This document shows, in pieces, positions 5,631-33,834 of a stretch of DNA of 33,834 nucleotides. Below the pieces are notes generated by a model that was not told the DNA's origin, ran no database searches, and was given only the letters and a program-made list of their open reading frames with translations. Source of the stretch: Gammaproteobacteria bacterium (GTDB taxonomy: Bacteria; Pseudomonadota; Gammaproteobacteria; Nevskiales; Nevskiaceae). Position 1 is the first letter of the stretch. Each line of letters starts with the position of its first letter. Where the stretch lies: positions 1-33,834 of the forward strand of contig JAYUGN010000152.1 in the NCBI GenBank assembly GCA_043767605.1, written 5' to 3'. A program made the translations under genes and the position numbers.

Positions 5631-6810
5631 AGGTTTCCTGCAGTGCAGTGAGGCCGAGGAAGGCCAGCCCGAACACGACCAGCCCGATCAGCAGGGTGCC
5701 GGGAATCAGACCGGTCGCGGGCCAGATCGCGGTCAGCGTGAGCGTGACCGGCACGATCGTGGCGCGCACGAAATTCGGCACCGAAGTGGCGACGGTCGCG
5801 CGGATGTCGGTGCCGAACTGCTCGGCAGCGGTGGTCACGAACACGGTCCAGTACCCCTGCGCGAGGCCGATCGCGAACATCAGCGCGCAATAGGTGCTGA
5901 CACTGGCGCCTTCCCGTGTCAGCAGCGCGGCCAGCAAGATCATCAGCAGGACGAGGCAGGCCTGGATCACGCGCTTGCGTGTGCCCAGCCATTCGCTGGC
6001 CAGGCCGGTGAGTGCACTGCCGAGCGCAAGGCCCAGCGCCTGCCACCGCAGTGCCTGCGCCACCGTCAGCGGCTCGGTGAGCGCGAGCGCCTTGCCGTAT
6101 TCCGGCGCGAGGTTCACGAACAGCGCGGAGACATACCAGATCGGCACGCCGACGGCGATCACGGCAAAAAACTTCCGCAGTCGCGGCGCGGACCGCAACA
6201 ACAGGGTGATGTCGCCGGCGTGCGCCCCGGCAGCCTTGCGGACGCTATAGAGATCCGATTCGCGCAGGCCGTACCAGCGCCCGGCCATCACGGCCAGGCC
6301 CATGACGCCGCCGACGATGTAGGCGGTGCGCCACTCGAACATCACGCCAACGTACGAGGCGGTGAGTGCGCCGACCAGCCCGAGGAACGAAATGACCGTA
6401 GTGCCGTAACCGCGGAATTTCGCCGGCATCAGCTCGGCGACCAGCGTCACGCCCATGCCCAGCTCGCCGGCCAGGCCCACGCCGGCTATGAAGCGCAGCA
6501 CGGCGTACTGCTGCGGGCTGTCGATGAAGCCGTTGGCGATGTTGGCCAGCGAGTACAGGCCGATGGTCGAGAGCAGCGCCACGCGGCGGCCGAGCTTGTC
6601 GCCGACGATGCCCCACAGCACGCCGCCCACGAGCATGCCGATCATCTGCAGGTTCAGCAGCGCGATGCCCCAGGACGTGTTGTCCGCGCCGGTGAGGCCG
6701 AGCTCTGTCAGGCTCTTCACGCGCACGACGCCGAACAGCACGATGTCGTACAGGTCGACGAAATAGCCCAGCGCCGCGAAGCCGACGGAAAACGCGACCG
6801 TTCTTTTCAT
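5602..6810 (-). CDS. MFS transporter
   Basis: Start at MKRTVAF (6810), overlapping the phaB-like stop as ATGA. About 12 hydrophobic segments. MFS signature GDKLGRRVALL between TM2 and TM3. Confidence 0.85.
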   Translation of the reverse strand: MKRTVAFSVGFAALGYFVDLYDIVLFGVVRVKSLTELGLTGADNTSWGIALLNLQMIGMLVGGVLWGIVGDKLGRRVALLSTIGLYSLANIANGFIDSPQQYAVLRFIAGVGLAGELGMGVTLVAELMPAKFRGYGTTVISFLGLVGALTASYVGVMFEWRTAYIVGGVMGLAVMAGRWYGLRESDLYSVRKAAGAHAGDITLLLRSAPRLRKFFAVIAVGVPIWYVSALFVNLAPEYGKALALTEPLTVAQALRWQALGLALGSALTGLASEWLGTRKRVIQACLVLLMILLAALLTREGASVSTYCALMFAIGLAQGYWTVFVTTAAEQFGTDIRATVATSVPNFVRATIVPVTLTLTAIWPATGLIPGTLLIGLVVFGLAFLGLTALQETYGKNLDYVE

Positions 6811-17428: not shown

Positions 17429-18253
17429 ATGGGCAAGAGCACGAAGTATGTGGCTCGAGCGCCCGATTCCAGCGGCATCGTCCAGTACACGGACGAGGAG
17501 CACCGCATCTGGGCAACGCTGTACGAGCGCCAGTACCAGGCCATCCAGGGCAAGGCCTGCGACGAATTCTTCCAGGGCATCGACCTGCTGAAGATGCCGT
17601 CCGACCGCATCCCGCAGCTGCCGGAGATCAGCAAGATCCTGAAGCGCGAGACCGGCTGGGAAGTGGCCTACGTGCCGGCGCTGATCCCGTTTTCCGAGTT
17701 CTTCAAGCTGCTGGCGAACCGCCAGTTCCCCGCCGCGACCTTCATCCGCACGCGCGATGAGCTGGACTACTTGAAGGAGCCGGACATCTTCCACGAGATC
17801 TTCGGCCACACACCGCTGCTGACCAACAAGTATTTCGCGGATTTCACCCACGCCTACGGCCAGCTGGGCCTGGCGGCCTCGAAGGAAGACCGCGTGTTCC
17901 TGGCGCGCATGTACTGGTTCACGGTGGAGTTCGGCCTGATCCAGCCGCCGGGCAAGCCGCTGCGCATCTATGGCGGTGGCATCCTGTCGTCCATCGGCGA
18001 GACGGCGTACGCCTTCAACAGCACCCCGCAGCGCAAGCGCTTCAACATCACGGATGCGCTGCGCACGCCGTATCGCATCGACATCATGCAGCCGCTGTAC
18101 TACTACCTCGAGGACCTGCGGGAGCTGTACGAGCTCGCGCGCATGGACCTGATGGGGCTGGTCGCGGAAGCCAGGCAGAAAGGCCTGCATGCGCCGCTGT
18201 TCGCGCCGAAGGCGGACAGCCCAAGCGTCACCAAGCTCGCAGGAAACATGTAA
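17429..18253 (+). CDS. phhA: phenylalanine 4-hydroxylase
   Basis: YTDEEHRIWATLYERQ, iron ligands in PDIFHEIFGHTPLL, MYWFTVEFGL, YGGGILSS. Confidence 0.92.
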   Translation: MGKSTKYVARAPDSSGIVQYTDEEHRIWATLYERQYQAIQGKACDEFFQGIDLLKMPSDRIPQLPEISKILKRETGWEVAYVPALIPFSEFFKLLANRQFPAATFIRTRDELDYLKEPDIFHEIFGHTPLLTNKYFADFTHAYGQLGLAASKEDRVFLARMYWFTVEFGLIQPPGKPLRIYGGGILSSIGETAYAFNSTPQRKRFNITDALRTPYRIDIMQPLYYYLEDLRELYELARMDLMGLVAEARQKGLHAPLFAPKADSPSVTKLAGNM

Positions 18254-19347
18254 TGCCCACGCAGCCTGCGCAGCCTACGCAGAAAGAAATGAACCCGCTC
18301 GGCAGCGACGGCTTCGAGTTCGTCGAGTTCACCGCGCCCGACAAGCAGGGCCTCTCGCAACTGCACACGCTGTTCGAGCTGCTCGGCTTCACGGCGGTGG
18401 CGAAGCACCGCAGCAAGGACGTCACGCTGTTCCGCCAGGGCGACATCAACTTCCTGGTCAACGGCACGCCGTACACGCACTTCCACCAGTTCGCGATGGC
18501 GCACGGCCCCGCGGCCTGCGCAATGGGCTGGCGAGTGAAGGATGCCGTGAAGGCTTACGAATACGCCGTGGCCCAGGGCGCGGTGCCCTTCGACGCACGC
18601 CCGGGCTACATGGAGCTGCGCCTGCCGGCCGTCTACGGCATCGGCAACAGCGTCCTTTATTTCATCGACCGCTACGGCCCGGAGCACTCGCTCTACGACG
18701 TGGACTTCCGCTGGATCGAGGGCGTGGACCGCAATCCGAAGGGCGTGGGCCTCGACACCCTCGATCACCTCACCCACAACGTGCAGCGCGGCAACATGGA
18801 TGTGTGGAGCGGCTTCTACGAGCGCATCGGCAATTTCAGGCAGATCCGCTACTTCGACATCGAGGGCAAGCAGACTGGGCTGGTCTCGCGCGCGATGACC
18901 AGCCCTTGCGGCAAGATCCGCATCCCGATCAACGAAAGCTCCGACGACAAGTCGCAGATCGAGGAATTCCTCAGGCAGTACCGTGGCGAGGGCATCCAGC
19001 ACATAGCGCTGTCGAGCAAGGACATCTACAAGACCGTGGCGGCGATGCGAGCGCGCGGCGTCACGTTCATGGACACCCCCGAGTCGTATTACGACGGCAT
19101 CGCCAGGCGCGTGAAGGGCCACCAGGAAGACGTGGCGCAGCTCAAGGCGCTGCGCGTGCTGATCGACGGCGCGCCCGAGGAAGGCATCCTGCTGCAGATC
19201 TTCACCAGCACCGTCATCGGCCCGATCTTCTTCGAGATCATCCAGCGCAAGGGCAACGAGGGTTTTGGCGAAGGCAACTTCAAGGCCCTGTTCGAGAGCA
19301 TCGAGGAAGACCAGATCCGCCGCGGCGTGCTCAAAGAGCCGGCGTAG
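18253..19347 (+). CDS. hppD: 4-hydroxyphenylpyruvate dioxygenase
   Basis: GFEFVEFTAPD, DHLTHNV, GEGIQHIALSS, LLQIFT..IGPIFFEIIQRKGNEGFGEGNFKALFESIE. TAATG overlap with the phhA stop. Confidence 0.95.
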   Translation: MPTQPAQPTQKEMNPLGSDGFEFVEFTAPDKQGLSQLHTLFELLGFTAVAKHRSKDVTLFRQGDINFLVNGTPYTHFHQFAMAHGPAACAMGWRVKDAVKAYEYAVAQGAVPFDARPGYMELRLPAVYGIGNSVLYFIDRYGPEHSLYDVDFRWIEGVDRNPKGVGLDTLDHLTHNVQRGNMDVWSGFYERIGNFRQIRYFDIEGKQTGLVSRAMTSPCGKIRIPINESSDDKSQIEEFLRQYRGEGIQHIALSSKDIYKTVAAMRARGVTFMDTPESYYDGIARRVKGHQEDVAQLKALRVLIDGAPEEGILLQIFTSTVIGPIFFEIIQRKGNEGFGEGNFKALFESIEEDQIRRGVLKEPA

Positions 19348-19378
19348 CGCCCGGGCGCGGCGAGGGATCGAGACCGAC

Positions 19379-20506
19379 ATGAAGAAGTGGATTTACCGCC
19401 CGCACATCGAGGGCACGTCCTCGCGGCAGGCCCACGCCGACCTGCCCGAGGGCACGGTCGAGCGCGAAATGAGCAAGGAGGGCTTCTTCGGCCCGGCTGC
19501 GCATTTCTACCATCCGCGCCCGCCGACGGGATGGACGAAATGGGATGGCCCGCTCAAGCCGCGCGCGTTCGACCTCGCCAAGCTCGGGTCGCACGGTGCT
19601 TCGCCGTGGCACGCCCACGACGTGCTGCACAACGCGCACGTCCGCATGCGGTACTGGGTGTGCAAGGTCTCGATGGCGCACCTCGCGCGCAATGCGGATG
19701 GCGATGAGCTCTTGTTCGTGCACGCCGGCCACGCGGAGCTGTTCTGCGATCACGGTCACCTGGCGATCGCGGCCGGGGATTACGTCGTGCTGCCGCGCGG
19801 CACGATGTGGCGCATCGAGTGCGCCGCGCCGGTGACGATGCTGCTGATCGAGGCCACCAACAGCAGCTACCAGTTGCCGGACAAGGGCCTGGTCGGCGAG
19901 CACGCGATCTTCGACCCGGCGATGCTCGATATCCCCGCCATCGACGAGGCCTTCAAGGCGCAGGCCGCGAAGCCCGGCGAGTGGCACGTGAAGATCAAGC
20001 GCCGCAACGAGATCTCGACGGTCGTGTATCCGTTCAACCCGCTCGACGCGGTGGGCTGGCATGGCAACCTGCACCCGGTGCGGATCAACGTGAAGGACAT
20101 CCGCCCGCTGATGTCGCACCGCTTCCACGTGCCGCCGAGCGCGCACACCACGTTCGTGGCGAACCGCTTCGTGGTCTGCACCTTCGCGCCGCGGCCGTTC
20201 GAGACGGACCCGGGCGCGATCAAGGTGCCGTTCTTCCACAACAACGACGACTACGACGAAGTCCTGTTCTACCACGCAGGCGATTTCTTCTCGCGCGACA
20301 ACATCCACGCCGGCATGGTCACGCTGCATCCCTGCGGCTTCACGCACGGGCCGCACCCGAAGGCGCTGAAAAAGATGCTGAAGCAGGACAAGCCCGCAAC
20401 CGACGAATACGCGGTGATGATCGATGCGCGCGATGCGCTCGAGGTGGATGCGCCTGCGACGAGCGTCGAGAACGCGGAATACCACATGAGCTGGGCCGGG
20501 AAATAA
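19379..20506 (+). CDS. hmgA: homogentisate 1,2-dioxygenase, short (~375 aa) cupin-type form
   Basis: Start at MKKWIY (19379). NADGDELLFV, DAVGWHGN, PFFHNNDDYDEVLFYH, TLHPCGFTHGPHP parallel the HGD motifs. Sits between hppD and fah. Confidence 0.8.
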   Translation: MKKWIYRPHIEGTSSRQAHADLPEGTVEREMSKEGFFGPAAHFYHPRPPTGWTKWDGPLKPRAFDLAKLGSHGASPWHAHDVLHNAHVRMRYWVCKVSMAHLARNADGDELLFVHAGHAELFCDHGHLAIAAGDYVVLPRGTMWRIECAAPVTMLLIEATNSSYQLPDKGLVGEHAIFDPAMLDIPAIDEAFKAQAAKPGEWHVKIKRRNEISTVVYPFNPLDAVGWHGNLHPVRINVKDIRPLMSHRFHVPPSAHTTFVANRFVVCTFAPRPFETDPGAIKVPFFHNNDDYDEVLFYHAGDFFSRDNIHAGMVTLHPCGFTHGPHPKALKKMLKQDKPATDEYAVMIDARDALEVDAPATSVENAEYHMSWAGK

Positions 20507-20525
20507 TCGGGGTCAGACCCCGATT
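20505..20525 (+). terminator. perfect intercistronic hairpin (attenuator or RNA-stability element candidate)
   Basis: AATCGGGGTC-A-GACCCCGATT, overlapping the hmgA TAA and followed by GATTTCATT. 13 nt before the fah ATG. Confidence 0.35.
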
Positions 20526-20538
20526 GATTTCATTACCC

Positions 20539-21555
20539 ATGAAATTTGCCACGCTGCGTGACGGAAGCCGCGACGGCCGCCTGCTGGTGGTCTCGCGCGA
20601 CCTCAAGTCCTGTGCGCCCGCGCCGGCCCGCGCGGCAACGCTGCAGAAGGCGCTCGACGACTGGGACGCCGTCGCGCCACTGCTGCAGGCGATCTCGGAC
20701 GAGATCAATGGCGGCAGGATCGCGGGCACGGCGGAGTTCAATGCACGCGACTGCCACTCGCCGCTGCCGCGGGCCTACCAGTGGGCCGATGGCTCGGCCT
20801 ACGTGAATCATGTCGAGCTGGTGCACAAGGCGCGTGGCGCCGAGATGCCGGCTTCGTTCTGGACCGACCCGCTGATGTACCAGGGCGGCTCGGATGCGTT
20901 CCTCGCGCCGTACGATCCGATCCGCATGGCGGACGAAGCCTGGGGCATCGACCTCGAGGCGGAAGTCGCCGTGGTCACCGGCGATGTGGCGATGGGCGCG
21001 AGTGCCGCGCAGGCGCTGGCGGCCGTGCGCCTCGTGATGCTCGTGAACGACGTGTCGCTGCGCAACCTGATTCCCAACGAGTTGGCCAAAGGCTTCGGCT
21101 TCTTCCAGTCCAAGCCTTCGAGCGCGTTCTCGCCGGTGGCGGTCACGCCCGACGAACTCGGCGCGGCCTGGCAGGGCGGCAAGCTGCACCGCCCGCTGCT
21201 CTCGCACCTCAACGGCAAGAAGCTCGGCGAGCCCGACGCGGCCACCGACATGACCTTCGACTTCGGAACCTTGGTCGCGCACGCCGCGAAGACCCGGCCG
21301 CTATGCGCGGGCAGCATCATCGGCAGCGGCACGGTCAGCAACCGCGGCGCCGATGGCGGCCCGGGCAAGTCCATCGAGGAGGGCGGCGCGGGCTATTCCT
21401 GCCTCGCCGAAGTCCGCACGGTGGAAACACTGCGGGATGGCAAGCCGAAGACGCCGTTCCTGAAATTCGGCGATCGCGTGCGCATCGAGATGCTGGACGC
21501 GCAGGGCGCCAGCATCTTCGGCGCGATCGAGCAGGCCGTCGAGAGATACCCGTGA
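20539..21555 (+). CDS. fahA: fumarylacetoacetate hydrolase-family enzyme (short ~338 aa type)
   Basis: Start at MKFATLRDGSRDGRLLVVSRDL (20539). FAH-fold blocks IDLEAEVAVVTG, LVMLVNDVSLR, GSGTVSN. Sits between hmgA and maiA. Confidence 0.8.
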   Translation: MKFATLRDGSRDGRLLVVSRDLKSCAPAPARAATLQKALDDWDAVAPLLQAISDEINGGRIAGTAEFNARDCHSPLPRAYQWADGSAYVNHVELVHKARGAEMPASFWTDPLMYQGGSDAFLAPYDPIRMADEAWGIDLEAEVAVVTGDVAMGASAAQALAAVRLVMLVNDVSLRNLIPNELAKGFGFFQSKPSSAFSPVAVTPDELGAAWQGGKLHRPLLSHLNGKKLGEPDAATDMTFDFGTLVAHAAKTRPLCAGSIIGSGTVSNRGADGGPGKSIEEGGAGYSCLAEVRTVETLRDGKPKTPFLKFGDRVRIEMLDAQGASIFGAIEQAVERYP

Positions 21556-21575
21556 CCGGGTCGCAAGCGACCCGG
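21556..21575 (+). other. intercistronic GC hairpin
   Basis: CCGGGTCGC-AA-GCGACCCGG immediately after the fah stop. No T-tract. Confidence 0.3.
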
Positions 21576-21604
21576 CGGTCCGTGACCCGGCGGCTCGGGG
21601 CCTG

Positions 21605-22258
21605 ATGCTCAAGCTCTATTCGTTCTGGCGCTCCTCGGCTTCGTACCGGGTGCGGATTGCGCTCGCCCTGAAGAAGCAGGAATACGAGTACATCCCGATC
21701 CACCTGGTGCAGGACGGCGGCCAGCAGTACAAGGCCGAGTTCACTGCGCTGAATCCGCAGGCGCGCGTGCCGCTGCTGGTGGACGGCGACTTTCGCATCG
21801 GCCAGTCTCTGGCGATCCTCGACTACCTCGAGGCGAAATTACCGCAGCCGGCGCTGGTACCCGCCGAGCCGCAGGCGCGGGCGCGGCTGCTGTCGTTCTG
21901 CCACGTGATCGCGTCCGACATCCAGCCGCTGCAGAACACCGGGCCGCTGAAGTACATGAGCGAGACCCTCGGCATCGACGAGCCGCGCAAGGATGCCTGG
22001 CTGCGGCACTGGATCGAGCGCGGCCTGCGCGCGCTCGAGCAGGAATGCGCCGCGCTGCCGCTCAAGGATTTCGTGTTCGGCGAGTCGGCCACCTGGGCGG
22101 ACTGCGTGCTGGTGCCACAGGTCTACAACGTCGACCGCTTCAAGTGCGACACGAGCGGATTTCCGCGGCTGTATGCGCTGGCCAGGCGCCTGAGCGTCCG
22201 ACCGGAATTCGCCGCCGGCAATCCCGACGTGCAGCCGGACGCACCCAGGAAACCCTGA
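21605..22258 (+). CDS. maiA: maleylacetoacetate isomerase (GST zeta class)
   Basis: MLKLYSFWRSSASYRVRIALALK, NPQARVPLL, IGQSLAILDYLE are the zeta-class GST/MaiA signatures. Confidence 0.9.
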   Translation: MLKLYSFWRSSASYRVRIALALKKQEYEYIPIHLVQDGGQQYKAEFTALNPQARVPLLVDGDFRIGQSLAILDYLEAKLPQPALVPAEPQARARLLSFCHVIASDIQPLQNTGPLKYMSETLGIDEPRKDAWLRHWIERGLRALEQECAALPLKDFVFGESATWADCVLVPQVYNVDRFKCDTSGFPRLYALARRLSVRPEFAAGNPDVQPDAPRKP

Positions 22259-24967: not shown

Positions 24968-27900
24968 TATTGCTCGGTGCGGTTCCAGAACGTGCGGAAT
25001 CGCGTGGCGCCCGTGCCACTGCGGCATTGCAGATCGGAGGCGAGCACGCACTTGACCGAGCCGCCAACGCTCGCGGAATCGGCGACGTTGACGTACACCG
25101 GCGAGGCCGGGATGCCGGCGCTGGCCAGCGGCCGCGCGCGGTCGGCGGCGGAGTTGGCGCCGCCCGTGCTGCTCGCGCCGTCCGCGGTGTTGTAGTTGAA
25201 CGACGCCGTGCCATCGGCTTGCGACACGGTGTAGAACAGGCCGCTGCCTTCCGATGACGTGCAGCTCGTCGTGTTGTGCATGTCCGGTGGCAGGTAGCTC
25301 GTGAAGTACACGCGGTTGGCCGCGGTCAGCGCCGAGCTCAGGATTTTTTCGCCGGGGGTTGCCGTCAGCCGTACGCGCCAGCCCGCGCCGAGGTCCGGCG
25401 TGCAGCCACTGGTTTGCAGGCAGTCGCTGGTGACATCGGTGAGCTGGGTGGGCGTGAGCGGCGTGATGCCGGCCGCGCTGCCGACCGCGGTGCGCCGATC
25501 CTTGATCACGTAAAGACCATTTTCGGTGAACGTCTCCACGCCGGCGGCGCTGCGCGCGCGGCCGTAGTCGAGCGGGTCTTCGCGATCGCCGCTGCCGATC
25601 ACGATCGCGTCGTACGGGCCGGCCGCATCGCGCGCCAGCACCAGGTCCGGTTCGTGGAAGAAGCGGCGGTCGTCGCCCTTGGCGGACGCACCGGCAGCGT
25701 GGCGCCCGAGCTGCGCGACCAGCGTCAGGGTCCAGTCGCGCGGATCGCCCTTGAGATCCGCCCGCCACAGGTTGCCGCCCGTGTCGCCGACCAGGATGCG
25801 GTCGGCGTTGCCGTCGCCGTCGGTGTCCACCACGGTCAGCGCGGACGGGATGCTGTCCTTGAGTTCGACGTGGGTGTAGACGCGCGCGTCGCTGGCCGCG
25901 CCGGTGCTGGCGCCCTTCACGGCCTTCCAGATCAACGCGCCGGTCTCGGCGTCCACCACGTAGATCGCATTGCCCATGCTGTCGTCGGTGCCCATCGAGC
26001 CGGTCGAGGTCTGGCTGTTCTGGAACAGGCCGAGCAGAGTGCCGGTGTAGTCCTTGTTGGGATCGTAGCCGCCGCCGAAGAACACGGCGGGGCGCGTGGT
26101 GACGCCGCTCGCGCCGCTTCCGGTGCGCACGCGCGCGACGCGCGGCTGCGAGAAGGTGTAGCCCAGCTCCGGGAAGTCGATGGTGTCGTTGCCGATGCGC
26201 CACTGGAATTTCGGCACGGTGGGGTCGGTCACGTCCAGCGCGTACTGCACGCGGCCGCCGCGACGCATGCCGGCGTACAGCCAGGCGCGGTCGCCGTCGC
26301 CCGACTGGATCGTGCCGTCGCCATTCACGTCGCGCATATAGGCGGTGGGCACGCCGTCGAAGCCAACCACGCGCGCCGGTGTCGGCGCGTTCAGCGCGAG
26401 CTTCTGCTGGATCGCGAGCATCTCGAACGGCATGAACGCCCAGGCCTCGCCGCCGTTCTCGGCGCCGCCGGCGGTGGTGTTGCGGATGAAGTGCAGGAAG
26501 CCGTCATTGGTGTTGACCGCGATGTAGATGGCGGGATTGGTCTTGCTGTAGCCACCCAGCGCGCCGTAGTTGATCGGCAGCGGCCGGCTGTGCATCGGGT
26601 CGCCCATCAGCCACGGCCGCACCGCGCTGGGCGTCGCGAAGTCGTAGCCGCGAATGTAAGTCAGCAGCGCCAGCGCTTCGGGCGTGCTTCCGACACCGAG
26701 CGACCCCTGCACGGTTACTGCCGTCGTCAGGTCGGCGTTCAACGCTTGCAGTTCGGCGTGACCGCTGGCGTAAAGGTAGAGCTGCCGTGCGCCCGCGGCC
26801 GAGTTCGACATTCCCGGCGTGCCGGGAATCCTCGATCCCGCGCCGCCGAGTGTCACGGCGCGGCCATCGCGGCCGGCGATCACGCCGTTGGCCGGATCTG
26901 CCGCGATCGTGCTGCCGTCGGACCAGAAGGTGAGCGCGTCCTGGCGGATGCGCCCGTCCGAGGAAGTGGCCTCGCTGCCGTTCGCATCCACCATCCGCAC
27001 TTCGCGGCCGGGCGTGCAGCCGGTGTCGCCGGCGGCGCAAGTCGTGTCGAAGGCCTTGAGCTTCAGCTTCTTCACATTGCCCGGCCAGAACGGCTTCAGG
27101 CCGAGGTCCGGCTGGAACAGCGTGAGGTAGACGCTGTCCAGCGTCTCGGCGCGATTGAAGGCGTTGGTCGCCAGCGAGGGTGCGACGAAGGTCGTGCTGA
27201 CGCTGACCACCTGCCCGAGCAGGCTGCGCAGCGAATCCACCAGCGCAGCCGGATCCTCGCCCAGCGGCAGCGGCAGCGGCCGCGTCGTGCCGCCGCTGGA
27301 AGCGTACTCGGTGGTGGTGGCGTCGAAGGTCGCCGGGCTGCTGTTGCGCGGCGTCGGCGGCACGTAGAAATAGGACGTGACGTTCTGCGTGCCCTCGAGC
27401 AGCGGCACCGTGCCGAATGCGCTGGGCGAGCGCGCGAGGTCGGCGTCGTGCAGCCAGCCGACCACGGTTGCGAGCTTGTTGCTGGCGCCCGCCAGGCTGA
27501 TGCCGTCCATGCCGCCGCCGGCCAGCCCCGCGGTGATCGCGGCGTCGGAGTCGCCGTCGTTCGAGGTGACGTCCATCAGGAAATTGATGGTGTAGAGGCG
27601 GCTGCACCGCAGCGACACGGTCAGCGGCGAAAGGTACTTGCCGAGCGCTGGCACCTCTGCCGTCACGTCCCAGCTTGCCGCCGTGTTGTCGAGGTCGAGG
27701 TTGAGCGTGTTGTTGGTGCCGTAGTCGGTGTAACCGTTGTGGCCGTTGTAGAGCCCCTGACCGGTGAGGTAGCGGAAGTACTCGAAGAACAGCTCCTTGC
27801 CCTGCCACGGCGCCGAGCCGGCCGCGGGCAGGTTGTCGAGCTTGGCCAGGAACGGCGAGAGGTTCGCGCCCGGCGCGAGGCTCGAGGGCGTGGTCAACAG

Positions 27901-28374
27901 GTTCACCAGCTGGTCCACCGGCTTGATGCCGGCGGCGACGTACGCGCCGTTGCTGCAGCGCTGCAGGCCGAGCGGCAGCAACGGCCGAGGGCCGGCGCAG
28001 GCCGCGTCCTGCCCGTGGTTCAGCATCAGGCCGACCTGCACGCCGCTGGTCTGCAGCAGCGCCATGCGCATCGACAACCGGATCGCGTCGAAGTACGTGA
28101 ACGAGGCCAGTGCGGTCGGCAGCACGCAGCTGGGGCAGTTGTCGCGGAAATATTTCGCGGGCGCGCACATCGCCGCGCCGGCGCCGACCAGGGTGCAGCC
28201 GGCGTACACGGCCTGCTGCGCCTTGCGGGCATCGACGCTGAACATCACCAGCGGCTGCGACAGCGCCGGCGGCACGCGGTTGGCGTAGATGTCGGAGTCG
28301 GCCGCGCGCACCGTGCCCGCGGTGGCTCCCGCCAGCACGGCTCCGGCGAGCGCCACGGCACTGCGGGTGTTCAT
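24967..28374 (-). CDS. pilY1: type IV pilus tip-associated adhesin / assembly protein PilY1 (PilC family)
   Basis: Start MNTRSAVALAGAVLAGATAGTVRA at 28374, overlapping the pilX stop as ATGA. 1135 aa. C-terminal propeller with EF-hand-like loop DTDGDGNAD (25801-25827) followed by ILVGDTGGNLWRADL. Confidence 0.9.
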   Translation of the reverse strand: MNTRSAVALAGAVLAGATAGTVRAADSDIYANRVPPALSQPLVMFSVDARKAQQAVYAGCTLVGAGAAMCAPAKYFRDNCPSCVLPTALASFTYFDAIRLSMRMALLQTSGVQVGLMLNHGQDAACAGPRPLLPLGLQRCSNGAYVAAGIKPVDQLVNLLTTPSSLAPGANLSPFLAKLDNLPAAGSAPWQGKELFFEYFRYLTGQGLYNGHNGYTDYGTNNTLNLDLDNTAASWDVTAEVPALGKYLSPLTVSLRCSRLYTINFLMDVTSNDGDSDAAITAGLAGGGMDGISLAGASNKLATVVGWLHDADLARSPSAFGTVPLLEGTQNVTSYFYVPPTPRNSSPATFDATTTEYASSGGTTRPLPLPLGEDPAALVDSLRSLLGQVVSVSTTFVAPSLATNAFNRAETLDSVYLTLFQPDLGLKPFWPGNVKKLKLKAFDTTCAAGDTGCTPGREVRMVDANGSEATSSDGRIRQDALTFWSDGSTIAADPANGVIAGRDGRAVTLGGAGSRIPGTPGMSNSAAGARQLYLYASGHAELQALNADLTTAVTVQGSLGVGSTPEALALLTYIRGYDFATPSAVRPWLMGDPMHSRPLPINYGALGGYSKTNPAIYIAVNTNDGFLHFIRNTTAGGAENGGEAWAFMPFEMLAIQQKLALNAPTPARVVGFDGVPTAYMRDVNGDGTIQSGDGDRAWLYAGMRRGGRVQYALDVTDPTVPKFQWRIGNDTIDFPELGYTFSQPRVARVRTGSGASGVTTRPAVFFGGGYDPNKDYTGTLLGLFQNSQTSTGSMGTDDSMGNAIYVVDAETGALIWKAVKGASTGAASDARVYTHVELKDSIPSALTVVDTDGDGNADRILVGDTGGNLWRADLKGDPRDWTLTLVAQLGRHAAGASAKGDDRRFFHEPDLVLARDAAGPYDAIVIGSGDREDPLDYGRARSAAGVETFTENGLYVIKDRRTAVGSAAGITPLTPTQLTDVTSDCLQTSGCTPDLGAGWRVRLTATPGEKILSSALTAANRVYFTSYLPPDMHNTTSCTSSEGSGLFYTVSQADGTASFNYNTADGASSTGGANSAADRARPLASAGIPASPVYVNVADSASVGGSVKCVLASDLQCRSGTGATRFRTFWNRTEQ

Positions 28375-28862
28375 TCGTTGGCCGGAACGATGACCGCGAC
28401 ACCTTCCTGCAATTGGTCGCGGCCCCAGCCGTAGCTGGTGGCGTCGTAGCGCGATTCGACCTGCATTTGCGCCGCGGAGAACTTCACCGCGCTGTAGCCG
28501 GTGCCGCGCGGCGGCGGAGCGAACTCCGGCGCCAGGCGGCGCACCTTCACCGAGATGCCGGCGCTGCCCATGCCGACGGGCGTGGAGACGGTGTTGCCAA
28601 AGCAGTCGGCGTCCGTCACTCCGGGCAGGCAGTTGGCGCGATCCACCGGGCCGGTCACGGCCGTGTTGGCGGGCACGGCCAGGGTCATGTCGATCAGCGA
28701 TTGCGCGTTCTGGAAGGCGTCGATCCGGAGTTCCTCGCCGACGGCGTTGCGCATCGCGCCGACGGAGAGGCGGAAGCCCGACAGCGCCAGCGCCGTCAGC
28801 AGCACGAGCATGATCAGCGAGACGAACAGCGCCACGCCGCCCTCGTGCCGGCGCCGGTTCAC
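28371..28862 (-). CDS. pilX: type IV pilus minor pilin PilX
   Basis: GTG start overlapping the pilW stop (GTGA). N-terminal hydrophobic helix GGVALFVSLIMLVLLTALALSGF of PilX_N type. Sits between pilW and pilY1. Confidence 0.75.
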   Translation of the reverse strand: MNRRRHEGGVALFVSLIMLVLLTALALSGFRLSVGAMRNAVGEELRIDAFQNAQSLIDMTLAVPANTAVTGPVDRANCLPGVTDADCFGNTVSTPVGMGSAGISVKVRRLAPEFAPPPRGTGYSAVKFSAAQMQVESRYDATSYGWGRDQLQEGVAVIVPANE

Positions 28863-29851
28863 TGGTACCCCAGTCCCTGCAGCGAGCGCGTATTGCGCAG
28901 CACCACTTCGCTGGCCAGGGTCTTGCGGTAGTAGTGGCTGTTATCGCCGGACGGCTGCAAGGCCGGCGAATTGCCGACCCAGTAGGTCTTGTCGTTGCGG
29001 TAGCCGGGGTCCGGCGTCGCTGAGCGCACGAGCAGGTAGACCCGCACCGCCACCGCGCGCGCAAGGTCGGCGGCGGCCGGCGCCTGCGAGAAGAAGTTCG
29101 CGACGCCGTCACCGTCGCTGTCCACGCCCACTTCGAGCTGCAGGTTCTCCACGCCCTGCGCGAGGCATTCCTTCGCGAAGAACGGCGGACTGCCGGCGCG
29201 CAGCACCATCCGGCACAACGACGGCACCCGCGGTGACTCCGTGGGCGAGACGGTGTACGGCTGCACGAAATAGAGGCGCGGGCGGTATTCGTAGTCCTGG
29301 TAAGGCTGTTCCATCGCCGGTGCGGTGCCGCCACCGAGGTAGAGCGCGCCCAGGCCCTGGTGGGTGCGCAGGTAAGTGCGGCCGATCACCAGGCCTGAGG
29401 CATCGGTGTCGCTGGCGTCTGCGCGGCCGCGCACCCGCTTGATCGCCACGATGTCGGCACCGGCCTGCACGTCTGCCGCGGGCAGGCAGGGATGGAGCAG
29501 GTTCGCGCTGGCCGCGGCCGGGTTGTCGTCCAGCGCCAGCGAGCTGAGGTCCTGCACCGCCCAGCCGGTCGGGCCACAGTCGTTGCCCACGGTCAGGGAG
29601 CCCGGCCGCTCGATCAGCGCGCCGTCGCGCACCCGCGACCAGAAGCCGGCCATCTCCAGGTCCTGCGTGAGCTGCGTCATCGCGAACGCGAGCTCGTCGT
29701 GCATGCGCGACAGTTTCTCGTCCTGCCGGTAGTTGCTGGACCCGCCGAGGAATACGTTGCCGACCGCCGCCACGCTCACGATGCCGAGCGAACTGGCGAT
29801 CATCAGTTCGATCAGCGAAAACCCCCGCTGCCGGACGCGCGCGCGGCTCAT
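28859..29851 (-). CDS. pilW: type IV pilus minor pilin PilW
   Basis: Prepilin cleavage/methylation motif QRGFSLIELMIASSLG. 330 aa. ATGA overlap with pilV. Confidence 0.85.
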   Translation of the reverse strand: MSRARVRQRGFSLIELMIASSLGIVSVAAVGNVFLGGSSNYRQDEKLSRMHDELAFAMTQLTQDLEMAGFWSRVRDGALIERPGSLTVGNDCGPTGWAVQDLSSLALDDNPAAASANLLHPCLPAADVQAGADIVAIKRVRGRADASDTDASGLVIGRTYLRTHQGLGALYLGGGTAPAMEQPYQDYEYRPRLYFVQPYTVSPTESPRVPSLCRMVLRAGSPPFFAKECLAQGVENLQLEVGVDSDGDGVANFFSQAPAAADLARAVAVRVYLLVRSATPDPGYRNDKTYWVGNSPALQPSGDNSHYYRKTLASEVVLRNTRSLQGLGYQ

Positions 29852-30561
29852 CGTGCGGCCACCGGCACGATCCAGGCCTGCACCGTCACCGTGCGGCGGT
29901 ACTGGTCCTGGGTGCCGTACAGGCGGGTTCCGTCGCTATAGACGGCGCTGCGGCCGCAGGCGTCGGCGGCGTTGTCCGGCAGCGCCTGGTCGCCGCGGAA
30001 CGCGATGCTCAGCGTATACATCCCGGCCGCTCCGGCGCCGGTCGCCGGCGCCGCCAGGCAGGCGGTGGCCAGCGTCAGGCCGCCGACCTTCTTGCCGGTG
30101 GGGCCCGTGCCGGTGCCGCCGAGCCGCTCGGTGGCGCCATCCAGCAACTGCTCCCATTGCCACAGGTCGAAGGCGGCCATTTGTTCGGCGGTGCAGGACG
30201 ACGTCGCGTCGCTGCAATTGGGCGAAGGAGCGGTCTCGCCCAGGCGGCCGCCCCCGAGCGCAGTCCCGGCGCCGGCGACATAGGCCCGCAGGGCCGCCGG
30301 TACGCTGTTGGCCCGCACCCGTTCGAGCAGGCTGTAGGCCAGCTGCGAGGCTTGCAGGCGCTGGCTGGCGTCGCGCAGGTTGCGCTTGGATACGACTTCA
30401 AGGGAAGTCAGCGACAACACGCCAACCGAGGTCACCATCAGCGAGGCCAGGACCTCGATCAGCGACACGCCGCGCTGCGCGCGCGACCGCTCGCGCGACG
30501 CTGTCGCCGCCGGGCTCTCATCGCCGGGCGGGAATGCCGGCGGCGGATTTGATTTGTGCAT
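29848..30561 (-). CDS. pilV: type IV pilus minor pilin PilV (unusually long leader)
   Basis: Prepilin motif QRGVSLIEVLASLMV, preceded by a 31-aa Pro-rich leader (MHKSNPPPAFPPGDESPAATASRERSRAQRG). No in-frame alternative start closer to the cleavage site. Confidence 0.8.
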   Translation of the reverse strand: MHKSNPPPAFPPGDESPAATASRERSRAQRGVSLIEVLASLMVTSVGVLSLTSLEVVSKRNLRDASQRLQASQLAYSLLERVRANSVPAALRAYVAGAGTALGGGRLGETAPSPNCSDATSSCTAEQMAAFDLWQWEQLLDGATERLGGTGTGPTGKKVGGLTLATACLAAPATGAGAAGMYTLSIAFRGDQALPDNAADACGRSAVYSDGTRLYGTQDQYRRTVTVQAWIVPVAAR

Positions 30562-30620
30562 GACAGTCCCCTGACGCGAGGACTATCTTGTAGCGGGGGC
30601 CGGGTTGCCCCCATAGGACC

Positions 30621-30650
30621 TTGGTCGTAAAAATACTTAAGTCGTATAAA
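30621..30650 (+). promoter_or_regulatory. sigma70-type promoter candidate for the 30685 gene, inside an AT-rich divergent control region
   Basis: TTGGTC (30621-30626), 18-nt spacer, TATAAA (30645-30650), 34 nt upstream of the ATG. Overlaps direct repeats GTCGTA at 30624 and 30641. Confidence 0.3.
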
Positions 30651-30684
30651 GTTCTAGCCGCCGCTCAAGCGTGACTGGACAAGA

Positions 30685-32376
30685 ATGACCTCAGTGAATG
30701 CCCGGTTGATGGCCGCAGCGCTGCTCAGCCTGGCCTGCGCCGGCGCTGCAGCGCAGGCACCGCCATTCTGGGCACGGCCGCGCGCCCCGGCGCCGGCGGA
30801 CTGCGTGACAACGGCCACCCCCAAGGCTTCCGGGGGCAGCACCCTGCAGTCCGGGCTGCTCGGCGCCGCCGCGCTGGCGCTGTTCGGGTGGATGGTCCGC
30901 GTCCAGCTGAAGAAGTCCGCGGCCGCCCGGGCCGCGATTCCCAGGGCTGAGTCCAGCGCGTCCCCGGCTACGCCCGCACCGCGCCACGACGACCTGGCGA
31001 TGAATCCGCTGTCGGCCATCGGCGGTGCGGGCATCGAGATGCACGACCCGGAAAAGCTCGGCGCCAACGAAGCCGTGCGGTTCTACGCCGAGGTGGCCGC
31101 TTCGCTGGTAACCGCGCTCCAGCGCGAGCCGGAGCGCGAGGACCTGCAGCTGAAGCTGCTCGAGATCTACCACGCCGCCGGCCGCGTGCACGAATTTGTC
31201 CAGCTCGCGCGGGTGTTCTTCGACCAGCATTTCGGGACGCGCGGCCGTCACTGGCCGGCGGTCTGGGAGATGGGCGCGCGCCTGGCGCCCGACCACCCGC
31301 TGTTCCGCGAAGCCCGGCCGGCAGCGGAAGGCGCGCGCGGCGGCAGGCGCGGCGCCTCGCCGTTCCGCCGCTTCAACGAAGTCAACCTGGACCAGGGCCG
31401 GATCTACGGCGCGCAGAAGGACATGATCGCGCAGGTCGAGCGCGTGCGCGGCGATCCGGCGTTCCACACCCTGGTGCGCGCGGTGCTGGTCAAGAGCGCG
31501 CGACGGCCGTCGCCGGTCACGGCGCTGCCGGTGCTGGCCGGCGCTGGCCGGGGTGGGCAGCTGTACCTGAAGCGCGAGGACCAGCGCCGCGGGCACGACG
31601 ACGTGCGCATCAACGCGCTGTGCCAGACGCTGCTCGCGCGCCAGCTCGGCCGCACCATCGTCGTCACCGCCACGCGCAGCGGACTGCACGGCCAGGCGGT
31701 GGCGTCCGCCGCGCAGCGTTTCGGCCTGGAATGCACGATCTACATTTCGGAGTCGGCGATGATCCACCACTACACCGACGTGCTGCGGATGCGCGAGCTC
31801 GGCGCCTTCGTGCGGCCGGTCAAGGTCGGCGACTCGCGTTATGCCGATCCGCGCCAGTTCGCGCTCGACGATGCCTGGCTCAACGACCCCGAGCACGTGA
31901 TGTACATCAGCGACCTGGACGGCGGCCCCGATCCGTATCCGGCGATCGTGCGCGAGTTCCAGATGACGGTGGGCCGCGAGGCGGCAGAGCAGCTGGCGCA
32001 GCTCGGCGCGCCGCCGGCGGCGGTGGTGGCGGGCGCCGCGGATGGCTACCAGGGCCTGGGGCTGCTGCACGCATTTGAAAGCGATCCGGCGGTCAGCCTG
32101 CACTATGTCGGCCCGAAGACCGTGCCGGGCTTCGAGCGGGAGCGCCACCGGCTCAAGGAAATGAAGCGGATGCAGTGGGTCCCCGGAGACCACGCCGAGG
32201 GGCTGCTCGTGCTCGAGCAACTGTATCCCGAACAGATCCAGATGTCCCTCGACACCGCCTGCACGCTCGCCGTCGCGCGCAAGCTCGCCGCCGGCCTTTC
32301 GCCCTCGCAATCCGTGCTGGCCCTGGTGCCGAGCCGCGAGGACACCGGGTCGCGCGAATTCGCGCGCAAGATGTGA
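30685..32376 (+). CDS. membrane-anchored FimV-like helical-repeat / TrpB-like (PLP fold, catalytic residues lost) fusion protein
   Basis: 563 aa. Signal-like N-terminus plus one TM helix (LLGAAALALFGWMV-RVQLKK). Helical repeat LQLKLLEIYHAAGRVHEFVQLARVFF...WPAVWEMGARLAPDHPLF. C-terminal region collinear with TrpB (LYLKREDQRRGHDDVRINAL, GPDPYPAIVREFQMTVGRE), but the Lys is Arg and GGGSNA is AADGYQ. Its stop overlaps the fimT GTG. Confidence 0.8.
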   Translation: MTSVNARLMAAALLSLACAGAAAQAPPFWARPRAPAPADCVTTATPKASGGSTLQSGLLGAAALALFGWMVRVQLKKSAAARAAIPRAESSASPATPAPRHDDLAMNPLSAIGGAGIEMHDPEKLGANEAVRFYAEVAASLVTALQREPEREDLQLKLLEIYHAAGRVHEFVQLARVFFDQHFGTRGRHWPAVWEMGARLAPDHPLFREARPAAEGARGGRRGASPFRRFNEVNLDQGRIYGAQKDMIAQVERVRGDPAFHTLVRAVLVKSARRPSPVTALPVLAGAGRGGQLYLKREDQRRGHDDVRINALCQTLLARQLGRTIVVTATRSGLHGQAVASAAQRFGLECTIYISESAMIHHYTDVLRMRELGAFVRPVKVGDSRYADPRQFALDDAWLNDPEHVMYISDLDGGPDPYPAIVREFQMTVGREAAEQLAQLGAPPAAVVAGAADGYQGLGLLHAFESDPAVSLHYVGPKTVPGFERERHRLKEMKRMQWVPGDHAEGLLVLEQLYPEQIQMSLDTACTLAVARKLAAGLSPSQSVLALVPSREDTGSREFARKM

Positions 32377-32924
32377 TCCACCGTGGCCGGGGCTTCACCA
32401 CGAGCGAGCTCATGATAGTGCTCGCGATTTCGGCCATCCTGCTGTCGCTCGCGCTGCCGGGCTTCCGCACGCTGGCGCTCAACACCCGGCGCACGGTCAC
32501 CGTCGATACGCTGGTGCTGAGTTTTTCGCTGGCGCGCGCCGAAGCGCAGAAGCGCGGCAGCGCCGTGACGGTCTGCGGGCTCAACAGCAGCGGCGCCGGC
32601 TGCGCGAACGGCGCCGACTGGCGCTACGGCTGGATGGTGTTCGTCGATACCAACGCCAACGGCGCCTGGGACGCCGGCGAGCCCGCGCCGCTGCAGAAAT
32701 ACATGACCGACGATCCGGCCCGGCGCCGCGTGACGGCCAACACTTATGGAATGACGGCCGGCTTCGTGCTGCTGCAGCCGTTCAACCAGGGCGCCACGGC
32801 GGCCACCGTCACCGTCTGCGACAGCCGCGGCGCCAGCGCGGCGCGCGCGGTCACGGTCAGCGGCACCGGCCGCGCCGCGGGGTCCGACAAGGACCTGAAC
32901 TACGCTGCGCTGACCTGCCCATGA
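32373..32924 (+). CDS. fimT: type IV pilus minor pilin FimT/GspH-like
   Basis: GTG at 32373 gives a 7-aa leader, then G|FTTSELMIVLAISAILLSLALPGF with Glu at +5. GspH/FimT-like core GWMVFVDTNANGAWDAGE. Confidence 0.8.
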   Translation: MIHRGRGFTTSELMIVLAISAILLSLALPGFRTLALNTRRTVTVDTLVLSFSLARAEAQKRGSAVTVCGLNSSGAGCANGADWRYGWMVFVDTNANGAWDAGEPAPLQKYMTDDPARRRVTANTYGMTAGFVLLQPFNQGATAATVTVCDSRGASAARAVTVSGTGRAAGSDKDLNYAALTCP

Positions 32925-33403
32925 CGAACGAGCCGCGCGAGCGCCGGCGATCCGGGTTCACGCTCACCGAGCTGCTGGTGGTGCTGACGGTGGTCGGCAT
33001 CCTGGCCGCCGTGGCGCTGCCCTCGTACCGCGACGCCACGCTGCGCGGGCGCCGCACGGTGGCCAAGACCTTCCTGACCGAGGCCGCCGGGCGCGAAGAG
33101 GGATGGTTCAGCGACCGCAAGGGCTACACCGCATCGCTCGGTGACGACGGCCTGCGCTACGCGCCGGGCAATGCGGTCACGAGTTTCTACGTGGATGTGA
33201 ACGGCAAGGCCGGGGTTTCCGCCAGCGCGGCGCTGTATTCGATTTCGCTGGCCACGATCAGCACCGGCGGCATCGTGACGTCGTGGACGCTCACCGCCGC
33301 GCCGCAGAACGCCCAGGCCCGGGACGCCTGCGGCAGCCTGATCCTCGCCCAGGACGGCACCCGGAGCGCCAGCAGCGGACGCAGCGACTGCTGGTCGCGC
33401 TAA
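32921..33403 (+). CDS. pilE: type IV pilin PilE-like
   Basis: RSGFTLTELLVVLTVVGILAAVALPSYRD (class III signal, Glu +5). C-terminal Cys pair (DACGS...SDCWSR). ATGA overlap with fimT. Confidence 0.85.
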   Translation: MTNEPRERRRSGFTLTELLVVLTVVGILAAVALPSYRDATLRGRRTVAKTFLTEAAGREEGWFSDRKGYTASLGDDGLRYAPGNAVTSFYVDVNGKAGVSASAALYSISLATISTGGIVTSWTLTAAPQNAQARDACGSLILAQDGTRSASSGRSDCWSR

Positions 33404-33416
33404 GATCGCCGCGCGT

Positions 33417-33717
33417 GGGCCTGTAGCTCAGATGGTTAGAGCAGGGGACTCATCACAAAGGTGCGTTCGCGCCGGAAGGCGCGAAATGAACGGGATGAAT
33501 TCAGGGAAACCGTCACGGGTGATGCCGCCGGCAATCCTGAGCCAAGCCGGGAGTGCACTTCCGGAAGGTGCAGAGACTACCTGAGGGCTTAAGCGCCCTT
33601 AATGACAGGCTCGAGCGTCCCGCGCCCTGATCGGGCGGTGAGATAGTCCACTCCCCTCGGAAACGAGGGGTTCAGTGAATCCTTTGGTCGCTGGTTCGAA
33701 TCCAGCCGGGCCCACCA
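33417..33717 (+). tRNA. tRNA with anticodon CAU, probably tRNA-Ile2 (lysidine type), interrupted by an intron
   Basis: Exon 1 (33417-33453) is GGGCCTGTAGCTCAGATGGTTAGAGCAGGGGACTCAT. Exon 2 (33678-33717) is AATCCTTTGGTCGCTGGTTCGAATCCAGCCGGGCCCACCA. Joined, they form a canonical 77-nt cloverleaf with encoded CCA and a G1-C72 pair, so not an initiator. Variable loop and T-arm closely resemble E. coli ileX as I recall it. Confidence 0.85.
33454..33677 (+). ncRNA. group I (IC3-like) self-splicing intron in the anticodon loop
   Basis: 224 nt inserted directly 3' of CAT. GGTG near the 5' end can pair with exon ..TCAT (P1 with a G-U pair). Hairpins TTCGCGCC-GGAA-GGCGCGAA and CCCCTCG-GAAA-CGAGGGG have GNRA loops. 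Core-like strings GAGCCAAG and GGTGCAGAGACTA. Ends in G. No ORF. Exact splice boundaries could shift by 1-2 nt. Confidence 0.75.
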
Positions 33718-33834
33718 TTAAGTCATTGATTATGCGGAGATTTTATCTATTTGGCCCTATTGCCCGGGGAAAAGGCCTTCCATTGGTCCCGGAGCAGAGA
33801 TGTTGCTGGGCAACATGGGGCGAATTGGAGCAAG

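Follow-up and report, generated by a model that had tools for sequence, protein, structure and literature searches.

A tRNA-Ile2 gene split by a probably self-splicing, ORF-less group I intron in an uncultured gammaproteobacterium

The window, meaning the whole stretch of 33,834 nucleotides that was analysed, very probably harbors a tRNA-Ile2 gene interrupted between anticodon-loop positions 36 and 37 by an ORF-less, self-splicing group I intron, which represents the setting Ile2.5Ug and belongs to a gammaproteobacterial ribozyme lineage close to phage introns. Exon 1 (GGGCCTGTAGCTCAGATGGTTAGAGCAGGGGACTCAT) ends with ...GACUCAU and is separated from exon 2 by an insert of 224 nt, the last base of which is a G. 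Once joined, the two exons form a 77-nt cloverleaf that ARAGORN, run on the spliced sequence, identified as tRNA(cat), with the acceptor stem GGGCCTG/CGGGCCC, the D stem GCTC/GAGC, the anticodon loop CTCATAA and the T arm GCTGG-TTCGAAT-CCAGC. These stems and the encoded CCA are the ones listed in the original prediction, and each was recovered at the same position. The anticodon stem possesses two G•U pairs, compared to one in most relatives. The intron is inserted between nucleotides 5 and 6 of the anticodon loop (CUCAU/AA), with a U at position -1 and an omega-G at its own end. Thus the core of the original prediction, a tRNA(CAU) gene into which a group I intron some 224 nt long is inserted just 3' of the anticodon, as in tRNA-Ile(CAU), is confirmed by the family match, by the detection of the spliced tRNA and by a fold backed by covariation, and the site corresponds to Ile2.5Ug.

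A search against Rfam, another check put forward in the original prediction, revealed a match to RF00028 (Intron_gpI) at 33441-33670, with 65 bits (gathering score 50) and an E-value of 1.7e-14, covering model positions 1-253 of 253. It is the sole family to reach its gathering score across the whole window, and the match lies far beyond chance. The core-like strings, GNRA-capped hairpins and terminal G noted earlier are all present: GAGCCAAG is located at 33539-33546 and GCAGAGACTA at 33570-33579, whereas the GNRA loops GGAA and GAAA occupy 33474-33477 and 33660-33663, respectively. As also predicted, the 224 nt contain no ORF, and no homing endonuclease gene is present. Taken by itself, the intron has a modest MFE z-score of -2.5, and the case therefore rests on comparative evidence. 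The coordinates of all features are compiled in Table 1.

Table 1. Positions of the split tRNA-Ile2 gene, its intron elements and the upstream pilin gene in the window
Feature	Position	Strand	Description
pilE-like type IV pilin gene (context)	32921-33403	+	GFTLxE motif in translation
tRNA-Ile2 exon 1	33417-33453	+	Acceptor 5' strand, D arm, anticodon stem 5' strand, loop CUCAU; ARAGORN on spliced sequence
Anticodon CAT	33451-33453	+	In exon 1
P1	33451-33463	+	Exon C-A-U and intron C (33451-33454) with guide GGUG (33460-33463); loop ACAAA
Group I intron	33454-33677	+	224 nt, ORF-less; starts after U-1, omega-G at 33677; RF00028 and covariation
P2	33464-33488	+	33466-33473 with 33478-33485; 33464-33465 with 33487-33488; GGAA cap 33474-33477
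P3 5' strand	33492-33497	+	GGGAUG; partner 33616-33621
P4 and P5	33501-33540	+	P4 33501-33505 with 33536-33540; P5 33510-33512 with 33529-33531; distal L5 region
P6 hairpin	33547-33564	+	CCGGGAG-UGCA-CUUCCGG; conserved GAGCCAAG directly before
P7 5' strand	33575-33579	+	GACUA, inside AGAGACUA; guanosine-binding helix; partner 33644-33648
P7.1-like extra hairpin in J7/3	33580-33609	+	30 nt; outer stem CCUG/CAGG, inner stem AGGGC/GCCCU
P3 3' strand	33616-33621	+	CGUCCC; conserved GAG directly before
P8 hairpin	33623-33637	+	CGCCC-UGAUC-GGGCG; short, without 11-nt tetraloop-receptor motif
P7 3' strand	33644-33648	+	UAGUC, inside conserved GAGAUAGUCC; invariant
P9.0, P9 and omega-G	33650-33677	+	P9.0 33650-33651 with 33675-33676; P9 33653-33659 with 33664-33670; loop GAAA 33660-33663; omega-G 33677
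tRNA-Ile2 exon 2	33678-33717	+	Anticodon-loop AA, anticodon stem 3' strand, variable loop, T arm, acceptor 3' strand, discriminator A, encoded CCA

The fold from P1 to P9, including the P3/P7 pseudoknot, was drawn by hand on the window sequence, and its 63 counted pairs were examined in a MAFFT alignment of 23 Ile2 introns (alignment A1). All core helices of the P3-P8 and P4-P6 domains, pseudoknot included, could be drawn. Standard pairs fill 89.9% of the cells (63 pairs in 23 introns), compared to 32-44% in controls with the 3' partners slid by 1-3 columns; 37 of the 63 pairs have changed on both sides, and none of 500 shuffles reaches the observed values on any of five measures. The model of P1-P9 with a P3-P7 core, which had been suggested as a check, is thus well supported. 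Judged from these homologues, the fold is demonstrably under purifying selection, and the intron is almost certainly functional. Nearly every pair covaries in P2, P6 and P9, whereas alignment A1 shows no variation in GACUCAU, the GUG guide, AGAGACUA, AUAGUCC or the terminal G. The invariance of P7 (GACUA/UAGUC) and of the three exon pairs of P1 is expected for a catalytic site.

Further analysis of the individual helices revealed how these changes are distributed. The splice-site wobble of P1 is formed by U33453 and G33461; none of the 23 sequences departs from its C-G, A-U and U•G pairs, and covariation is seen at the fourth pair (CG in 20, AU in 2 and GU in 1). The GGTG guide named in the original prediction is therefore right, but it pairs with CAU|C, i.e. 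through three exon pairs and one intron pair, and not with UCAU. All eight main pairs of P2 have changed on both sides among the homologues. P3 is paired in 99% of cells, with GC to CG and AU to GC changes; P4 (98% paired) and P5 (86% paired) both carry compensatory changes, and they are bordered by J3/4 (AAU) and J4/5 (AAA). P6 is 92% paired, with five of its six counted pairs changed on both sides. The five pairs of P7, which forms the pseudoknot with P3, are invariant in all 23 sequences. The extra hairpin in J7/3 has a conserved 3' internal loop, UAAUGA; it occurs in 16 of the 23 rows (the window and 15 others, mostly gammaproteobacterial), with compensatory changes in the inner stem. P8 is 99% paired and two of its pairs covary. 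P9.0 covaries as well (AU/GU/GC and CG/GC), six of the seven P9 pairs have changed on both sides, and the last base of the intron is a G in 23 of 23 sequences. Reading the sequence, we could not draw a convincing P10 in which the 3' exon (AAUCC) pairs with nucleotides lying 5' of the guide.

To identify the host tRNA, the spliced sequence was compared with all tRNA genes in 5426 complete E. coli genomes. Its best match is a RefSeq tRNA-Ile gene whose anticodon is CAT (88% identity, 100% of the length), and on the basis of this similarity the host is identified as tRNA-Ile2 (CAU, lysidine type), neither Met nor fMet. In tRNA-Ile2, C34 is converted to lysidine, so that the tRNA reads AUA. ARAGORN gives the label Met to every CAT anticodon, which would fit an elongator tRNA-Met; this identity is highly improbable, as the closest E. 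coli gene in that set is a tRNA-Ile, and the acceptor stem carries C4-G69 and C5-G68, which we take to be identity elements of TilS. G1 and C72 are paired in the spliced tRNA, which excludes an initiator tRNA. Run by default, ARAGORN called no tRNA anywhere in the unspliced window, nor in the sibling contigs, and drew the cloverleaf only on the joined exons, a comparison that had been proposed beforehand; the miss is expected because of the 224-nt intron and hence is no evidence against the gene. Its intron mode (-i) reports a 224-nt intron at positions 35/36 and tRNA-Gln(ctg) as the product. In this version the intron would lie 2 nt upstream (33452-33675), where it also has a terminal G, but we rejected the call as an artefact and give tRNA-Gln(CUG) practically no chance of being the product. 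The 5' exon would end in C instead of U and leave no U•G wobble at the splice site; the invariant GUG guide, which the call disregards, pairs with CAU; and the tRNA body is the one that matches E. coli tRNA-Ile(CAT). Moreover, intron mode returned the same "Gln" label for 13 homologous loci, which marks a systematic artefact of a program that disregards the splice-site rules of group I introns. Exactly such trouble in mapping intron boundaries has been reported (Williams 2020, bioRxiv 10.1101/2020.01.27.920355). In practice, tRNA finders at default settings miss the gene and the intron mode of ARAGORN mislabels it as Gln(CUG), and automated annotation would therefore make the organism seem to be without an AUA-decoding tRNA.

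It is very unlikely that the locus is a disrupted pseudogene with an inactive intron, complemented by an intact tRNA-Ile2 gene elsewhere in the genome. Such decay would be in keeping with the lack of a sigma-70 consensus match in 32300-33834, a crude scan for a genome of 70% G+C; however, all core helices are intact, the catalytic core has the very nucleotides that 22 other introns conserve, the substitutions relative to the homologues are compensatory or fall in loops, and both exons retain a perfect cloverleaf, which is not what a decaying pseudogene would look like. A second, uninterrupted tRNA-Ile2 gene was found neither in the window nor in 20 kb of one sibling contig, and partial tRNA copies resembling att repeats occur neither in the window nor within up to 10 kb downstream in the three sibling contigs (L121, L122 and L123).

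The stop codon of the pilin gene lies 13 nt upstream of the tRNA start, and a protein identical to this pilin carries the Pfam domains N_methyl and ComP_DUS. A terminator scan of 32300-33834 yielded only two terminator-like sites, both inside ORFs and at chance level. Given the nearby pilin stop codon and the missing sigma-70 match, the likeliest source of the precursor would be co-transcription with fimT-pilE or a promoter inside the pilin ORF. Starting from the observed exon/intron boundaries, conserved fold and tRNA type, catalysis, the order of its steps, when they occur with respect to 5' and 3' processing, and modification can be modelled on the group I family. The precursor would be transcribed, probably together with the upstream pilin gene or from inside it, and the P3-P9 core would fold. 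The GGUG guide would then pair with the exon CAU and the first intron C to form P1, placing the U•G wobble at the splice site, and a free guanosine bound in P7 would attack after U33453. Subsequently, the terminal G33677, positioned by P9.0, would move into the same P7 pocket, and the freed 3'-OH of the exon would join A33678; the exons would presumably be held together by the anticodon stem of the tRNA rather than by P10. Introns in anticodon loops are known to have their exons held in this way in the Anabaena pre-tRNA, as cited in PMC3984707. The mature tRNA would finally be open to modification by TilS and to charging.

Species-representative genomes were scanned with the pattern GAGCCAAG-N(8-38)-AAGGTGNAGAGACTA, which recovered at least 120 loci. 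In nearly all of these a group I intron interrupts a tRNA gene; the commonest class among the 120 loci listed is Leu(UAA), with 28. Applying an exon-based pattern to the scan loci showed that at least 21 further genomes carry the split Ile2 gene, from Gammaproteobacteria and Betaproteobacteria and one member of the Bacteroidota. Among the loci listed, the hosts comprise Steroidobacteraceae, Woeseiaceae, Rhodanobacteraceae/Lysobacter, Pseudomonadales, several Burkholderiales, a Neisseriaceae strain and one Runella. Lysobacter daejeonensis GH1-9 (L078), a cultured relative, has an intron of the window type. The closest relatives are the three metagenome contigs L121-L123, which also carry the split gene and encode the exact pilin protein of the window. 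The precursor of L121 is identical to that of the window; within the intron, L122 and L123 differ only in the loop of the extra hairpin, and their gene ends in ...ACTA compared to ...ACCA. The introns nearest to that of the window belong to uncultured Gammaproteobacteria, Steroidobacteraceae, Woeseiaceae and Rhodanobacteraceae/Lysobacter. No gene order shared between the window and the other Ile2-intron loci was found. Altogether, this ribozyme lineage, with its extra hairpin between P7 and P3', is widespread in Gammaproteobacteria, and its likeness to phage introns is a property of the widespread clade and not of the window locus. The original prediction had called bacterial tRNA group I introns rare, which is contradicted both by the scan and by the 5292 tRNA group I introns that Williams 2020 (bioRxiv 10.1101/2020.01.27.920355) mapped in about 80,000 genomes.

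Scanning viral contigs for the block of P7, extra hairpin and P3' of the window yielded nine contigs. Three of them begin inside Lysobacter-like Ile2 introns and are probably provirus edges, four carry cyanophage psbA introns as judged from translation of the downstream exon, and one has an HNH ORF. In the remaining contig (L132) the intron resides in a capsid-like gene (...REDLSNII|YNISPE...) and is likewise placed after ...UCAU. The L132 intron resembles the window intron over the whole length, P2 included, and scores 161 bits by blastn, equal to the Ile2 introns from other gammaproteobacterial families; lower scores were obtained for the psbA introns (about 95 bits) and for a DNA polymerase intron of IA2 type (81 bits). 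The extra J7/3 hairpin also occurs in the psbA intron of phage S-PM2 and in other phage introns. By blastn, the window ribozyme is thus closer to phage introns in protein-coding genes than to Azoarcus-type introns.

For comparison with the Azoarcus pre-tRNA-Ile intron, three betaproteobacterial loci (L004, L098 and L116) served as stand-ins, the ends of which match the published Azoarcus primers GTGCCTT... and ...GAAAGTCACACAAACC. The Azoarcus intron is 205 nt long, self-splices robustly and has been a structural model system. The tRNA, the splice site, the P1 formed by CAU and GUG, and a similar size are common to the window intron and the Azoarcus-type introns, in both of which GNRA loops cap P2 and P9 and the strings GAGCCAAG and AGAGACUA...AUAGUCC occur in the core. 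However, the identity is only 51-54%, and none of the three loci appears among the 69 blastn matches listed for the window intron (E below 1e-3). The window intron has the 30-nt hairpin between P7 and P3', which is missing from Azoarcus-type introns; P3' is GAGCGUCCC compared to GACGGCACC, the 3' end reads ..UUCAGUG compared to ..CAAACCAG, and the window P1 lacks the GAAA-capped extension of the Azoarcus P1. GNRA loops that dock into CCUAAG/UAUGG receptors, as seen in the Azoarcus structure, are a trait of IC3 introns. In these, the receptors in P5 and P8 dock L9 and L2, whereas the window intron has the GGAA and GAAA loops with the receptor motif in neither P5 nor P8. Azoarcus-type, Leu, Arg, Ser and Phe introns all place GACGG(G)C (P3') directly after P7 and carry CCUAAG...UAUGG in P8. 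The cyanobacterial and plastid tRNA-Leu(UAA) intron, also IC3, is like the window intron a small ORF-less group I intron in an anticodon loop, but it differs in tRNA and position (Leu.3Ug), in GACGGGC following P7 directly and in its P8 receptor. Accordingly, the relationship to the Azoarcus IC3 intron that the original prediction had suspected stands for the host tRNA and insertion site and only loosely for the ribozyme, which by its sequence is not Azoarcus-like in detail. At three loci from Burkholderiales and at the Runella locus a third type of Ile2 intron occurs, whose J7/3 hairpin is of another kind (GUGAG...AUAAG); the Ile2 site thus holds at least two structurally distinct ribozyme types, probably three.

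Two origins of the gammaproteobacterial type were weighed. The intron could be a direct vertical orthologue of the Azoarcus IC3 intron, descended from one ancient insertion in tRNA-Ile2, with the J7/3 hairpin gained and the receptors lost, and we regard this as quite possible, if somewhat short of an even chance. It would account for the same host tRNA, the identical insertion point, and the GUG guide and GAGCCAAG...AAGGUGNAGAGACUA core common to the window and the Azoarcus-type introns. The low identity to the three stand-ins and their absence from the matches listed argue against it, and so do the scores of phage introns in the same blastn search; besides, P3', J8/7, P5 and P8 differ jointly, which goes beyond an extra hairpin alone. 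The gammaproteobacterial Ile2 introns might instead constitute a ribozyme lineage of their own, related to phage introns, that reached this anticodon-loop site independently through a GUG guide recognizing ...CAU, a reading that we propose only tentatively. Its core and P7.1-like hairpin would then be held in common with introns of phage psbA, capsid-like and DNA polymerase genes. If such a separate lineage is true, the Ile2 site would be a recurrent landing pad, with phages as a reservoir.

Comparison with known phage introns revealed both shared and distinct features of the window ribozyme. The S-PM2 psbA intron, reported as a group I intron, is A+T-rich and acts with the free-standing endonuclease F-CphI. 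It contains a near-identical block, AGAGACUA-CCUGAGGG..CCCUUAAUAACAGG-..AAGCGUCC..GAUGAUAUAGUCC, which takes in the extra hairpin together with its internal loop; however, it resides in a protein-coding host gene (D1) and differs in P1, P2 and exon context. The IA2 introns within DNA polymerase genes from T7-like phages, such as Ralstonia phage BOESR1, are very similar in P3-P6, J6/7, J8/7 and P9, with corresponding core strings (GAAUUCAGGGAAACC...GGCAAUCCUGAGCCAAGCC...GGAAGGUGCA...GAUGAUAUAGUC). The BOESR1 intron carries P7.1 (UCCCGAAAGGGA) joined through GUA to P7.2, whereas the window has one two-part hairpin in this place. P7.1 and P7.2 joined by G-U-A are the IA2 signature (PMC3428280). 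The window intron lacks a GUA linker and forms a single hairpin that contains an internal loop, and this hairpin (33580-33609) intervenes where IC3 introns have P3' right after P7 and no helix in J7/3; with the J7/3 helix present and the GUA linker absent, it therefore displays neither the tested IC3 feature nor the IA2 signature.

Knowledge of group I introns in tRNA-Ile2 dates back to the work on Azoarcus, and the locus is an ordinary further example of this long-known arrangement in Proteobacteria. The biological gain is small, as tRNA group I introns have already been catalogued by the thousands, and the diversity of ribozyme types at the Ile2 site may already be implicit in the existing catalogues. 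Nevertheless, the occurrence of distinct ribozyme types at one tRNA site, with the type of the window nearest to phage introns, bears on the spread of ORF-less tRNA introns. Ile2.5Ug is one of the four classical settings of bacterial tRNA introns (Williams 2020, bioRxiv 10.1101/2020.01.27.920355). With this class the window intron shares the tRNA-Ile2(CAU) host, the insertion after the fifth anticodon-loop nucleotide, U-1, the omega-G and the lack of an ORF, and it shows no class-defining difference; the window copy is a further member of the class, from an uncultured metagenomic bacterium.

The gene neighbourhood of the intron-bearing tRNA-Ile2(CAU) gene and the related loci compared with it are listed in the table. 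Comparison of the window with two sibling metagenome contigs that encode an identical pilin (L122 and L123) revealed that the tRNA ends in ...CCCACTA in both siblings versus ...CCCACCA in the window, indicating that the 3' CCA is encoded in the window strain and not in these close relatives. The sequence directly 3' of the tRNA varies among sibling contigs (L121 versus L122). An aquaporin/ArsC-like/ArsR cluster is located in this region together with a ParE/Phd toxin-antitoxin pair, and L122 has an additional ParE-toxin pair compared to L121. Over the 10 kb 3' of the tRNA in the sibling contigs, no integrase and no direct repeat originating from the tRNA was detected.

Positions of the compared features
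Feature	Locus	Positions (nt)	Strand	Remark
Phenylalanine hydroxylase, fumarylacetoacetase, GST/maleylacetoacetate-isomerase-like gene	Window	17429-22258		Upstream of pilus cluster
Type IV pilus minor-pilin cluster	Window	24973-33403		Ends 13 nt before tRNA
PilY1, PilX, PilW, PilV-like gene	Window	First part of pilus cluster	-	
563-aa PALP-domain protein, then FimT/GspH-like, then PilE-like gene	Window	Within pilus cluster	+	
tRNA 3' end	Window	33698-33717		
tRNA 3' end	L122	9469-9488		
tRNA 3' end	L123	6896-6915		
Region downstream of tRNA	L121	10800-14050		Window ends at 33834
Region downstream of tRNA	L122	9490-12600		
Region with extra tRNA-Ile2 5' half	L004 (Polynucleobacter)	~6244-6473	-	
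Region with extra tRNA-Ile2 5' half	L041 (Burkholderiales MAG)	~2051-2281	-	
Group I intron in phage capsid-like ORF	L132	9197-9447		IMG/VR UViG_3300030098_003770
Group I intron	L069	~1400-2400	-	Contig binned as Methanosarcinaceae archaeon
tRNA-Thr UGU introns with P7.1-GUA-P7.2	L039, L048, L091, L105			
tRNA-Asn GUU introns with P7.1-GUA-P7.2	L006, L063			
tRNA intron with P7.1-GUA-P7.2	L087			tRNA-Leu UAG (ARAGORN)

In L004 and L041, a partial copy of tRNA-Ile2 lies ~190 nt upstream of the intron-bearing gene. The duplicate is limited to the 5' half, running through CTCATAA and then into unrelated sequence; in L004 it is immediately preceded by the end of an rpoD-like gene. These copies look like scars left by a recombination or integration event within the 5' half or anticodon loop.

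Among the IMG/VR viral contigs, the L132 intron is very similar to that of the window from end to end, including the P1 guide, P2, the extra hairpin and P9. It splits a phage capsid-like ORF at ...REDLSNII/YNISPETTPF..., and the 5' exon ends in UCAU, as in the window. The first ~150-270 nt of three other viral contigs (L128, L129 and L133) start within a Lysobacter-like tRNA-Ile2 intron and continue through exon 2, which suggests that they are proviruses or islands called beside the tRNA gene. The L069 intron possesses a J7/3 hairpin (CUGGAG...CUUAAUAACCAG) of the same type as that of the window intron, and appears to split a ribonucleotide-reductase-like gene (...NPCGEVPL...GSINLSEMV...). It is preceded by an ORF with LAGLIDADG motifs, which is probably itself part of the intron. 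The L069 DNA could be viral or mis-binned.

A different organization was seen in the tRNA-Thr, tRNA-Asn and tRNA-Leu(UAG) introns, the hosts of which are mostly Patescibacteria/CPR. Between P7 and P3', these introns have UCCC-GAAA-GGGA, GUA and a second hairpin, which match the P7.1-GUA-P7.2 signature of subgroup IA2; thus, bacterial tRNA introns are not all of subgroup IC3.
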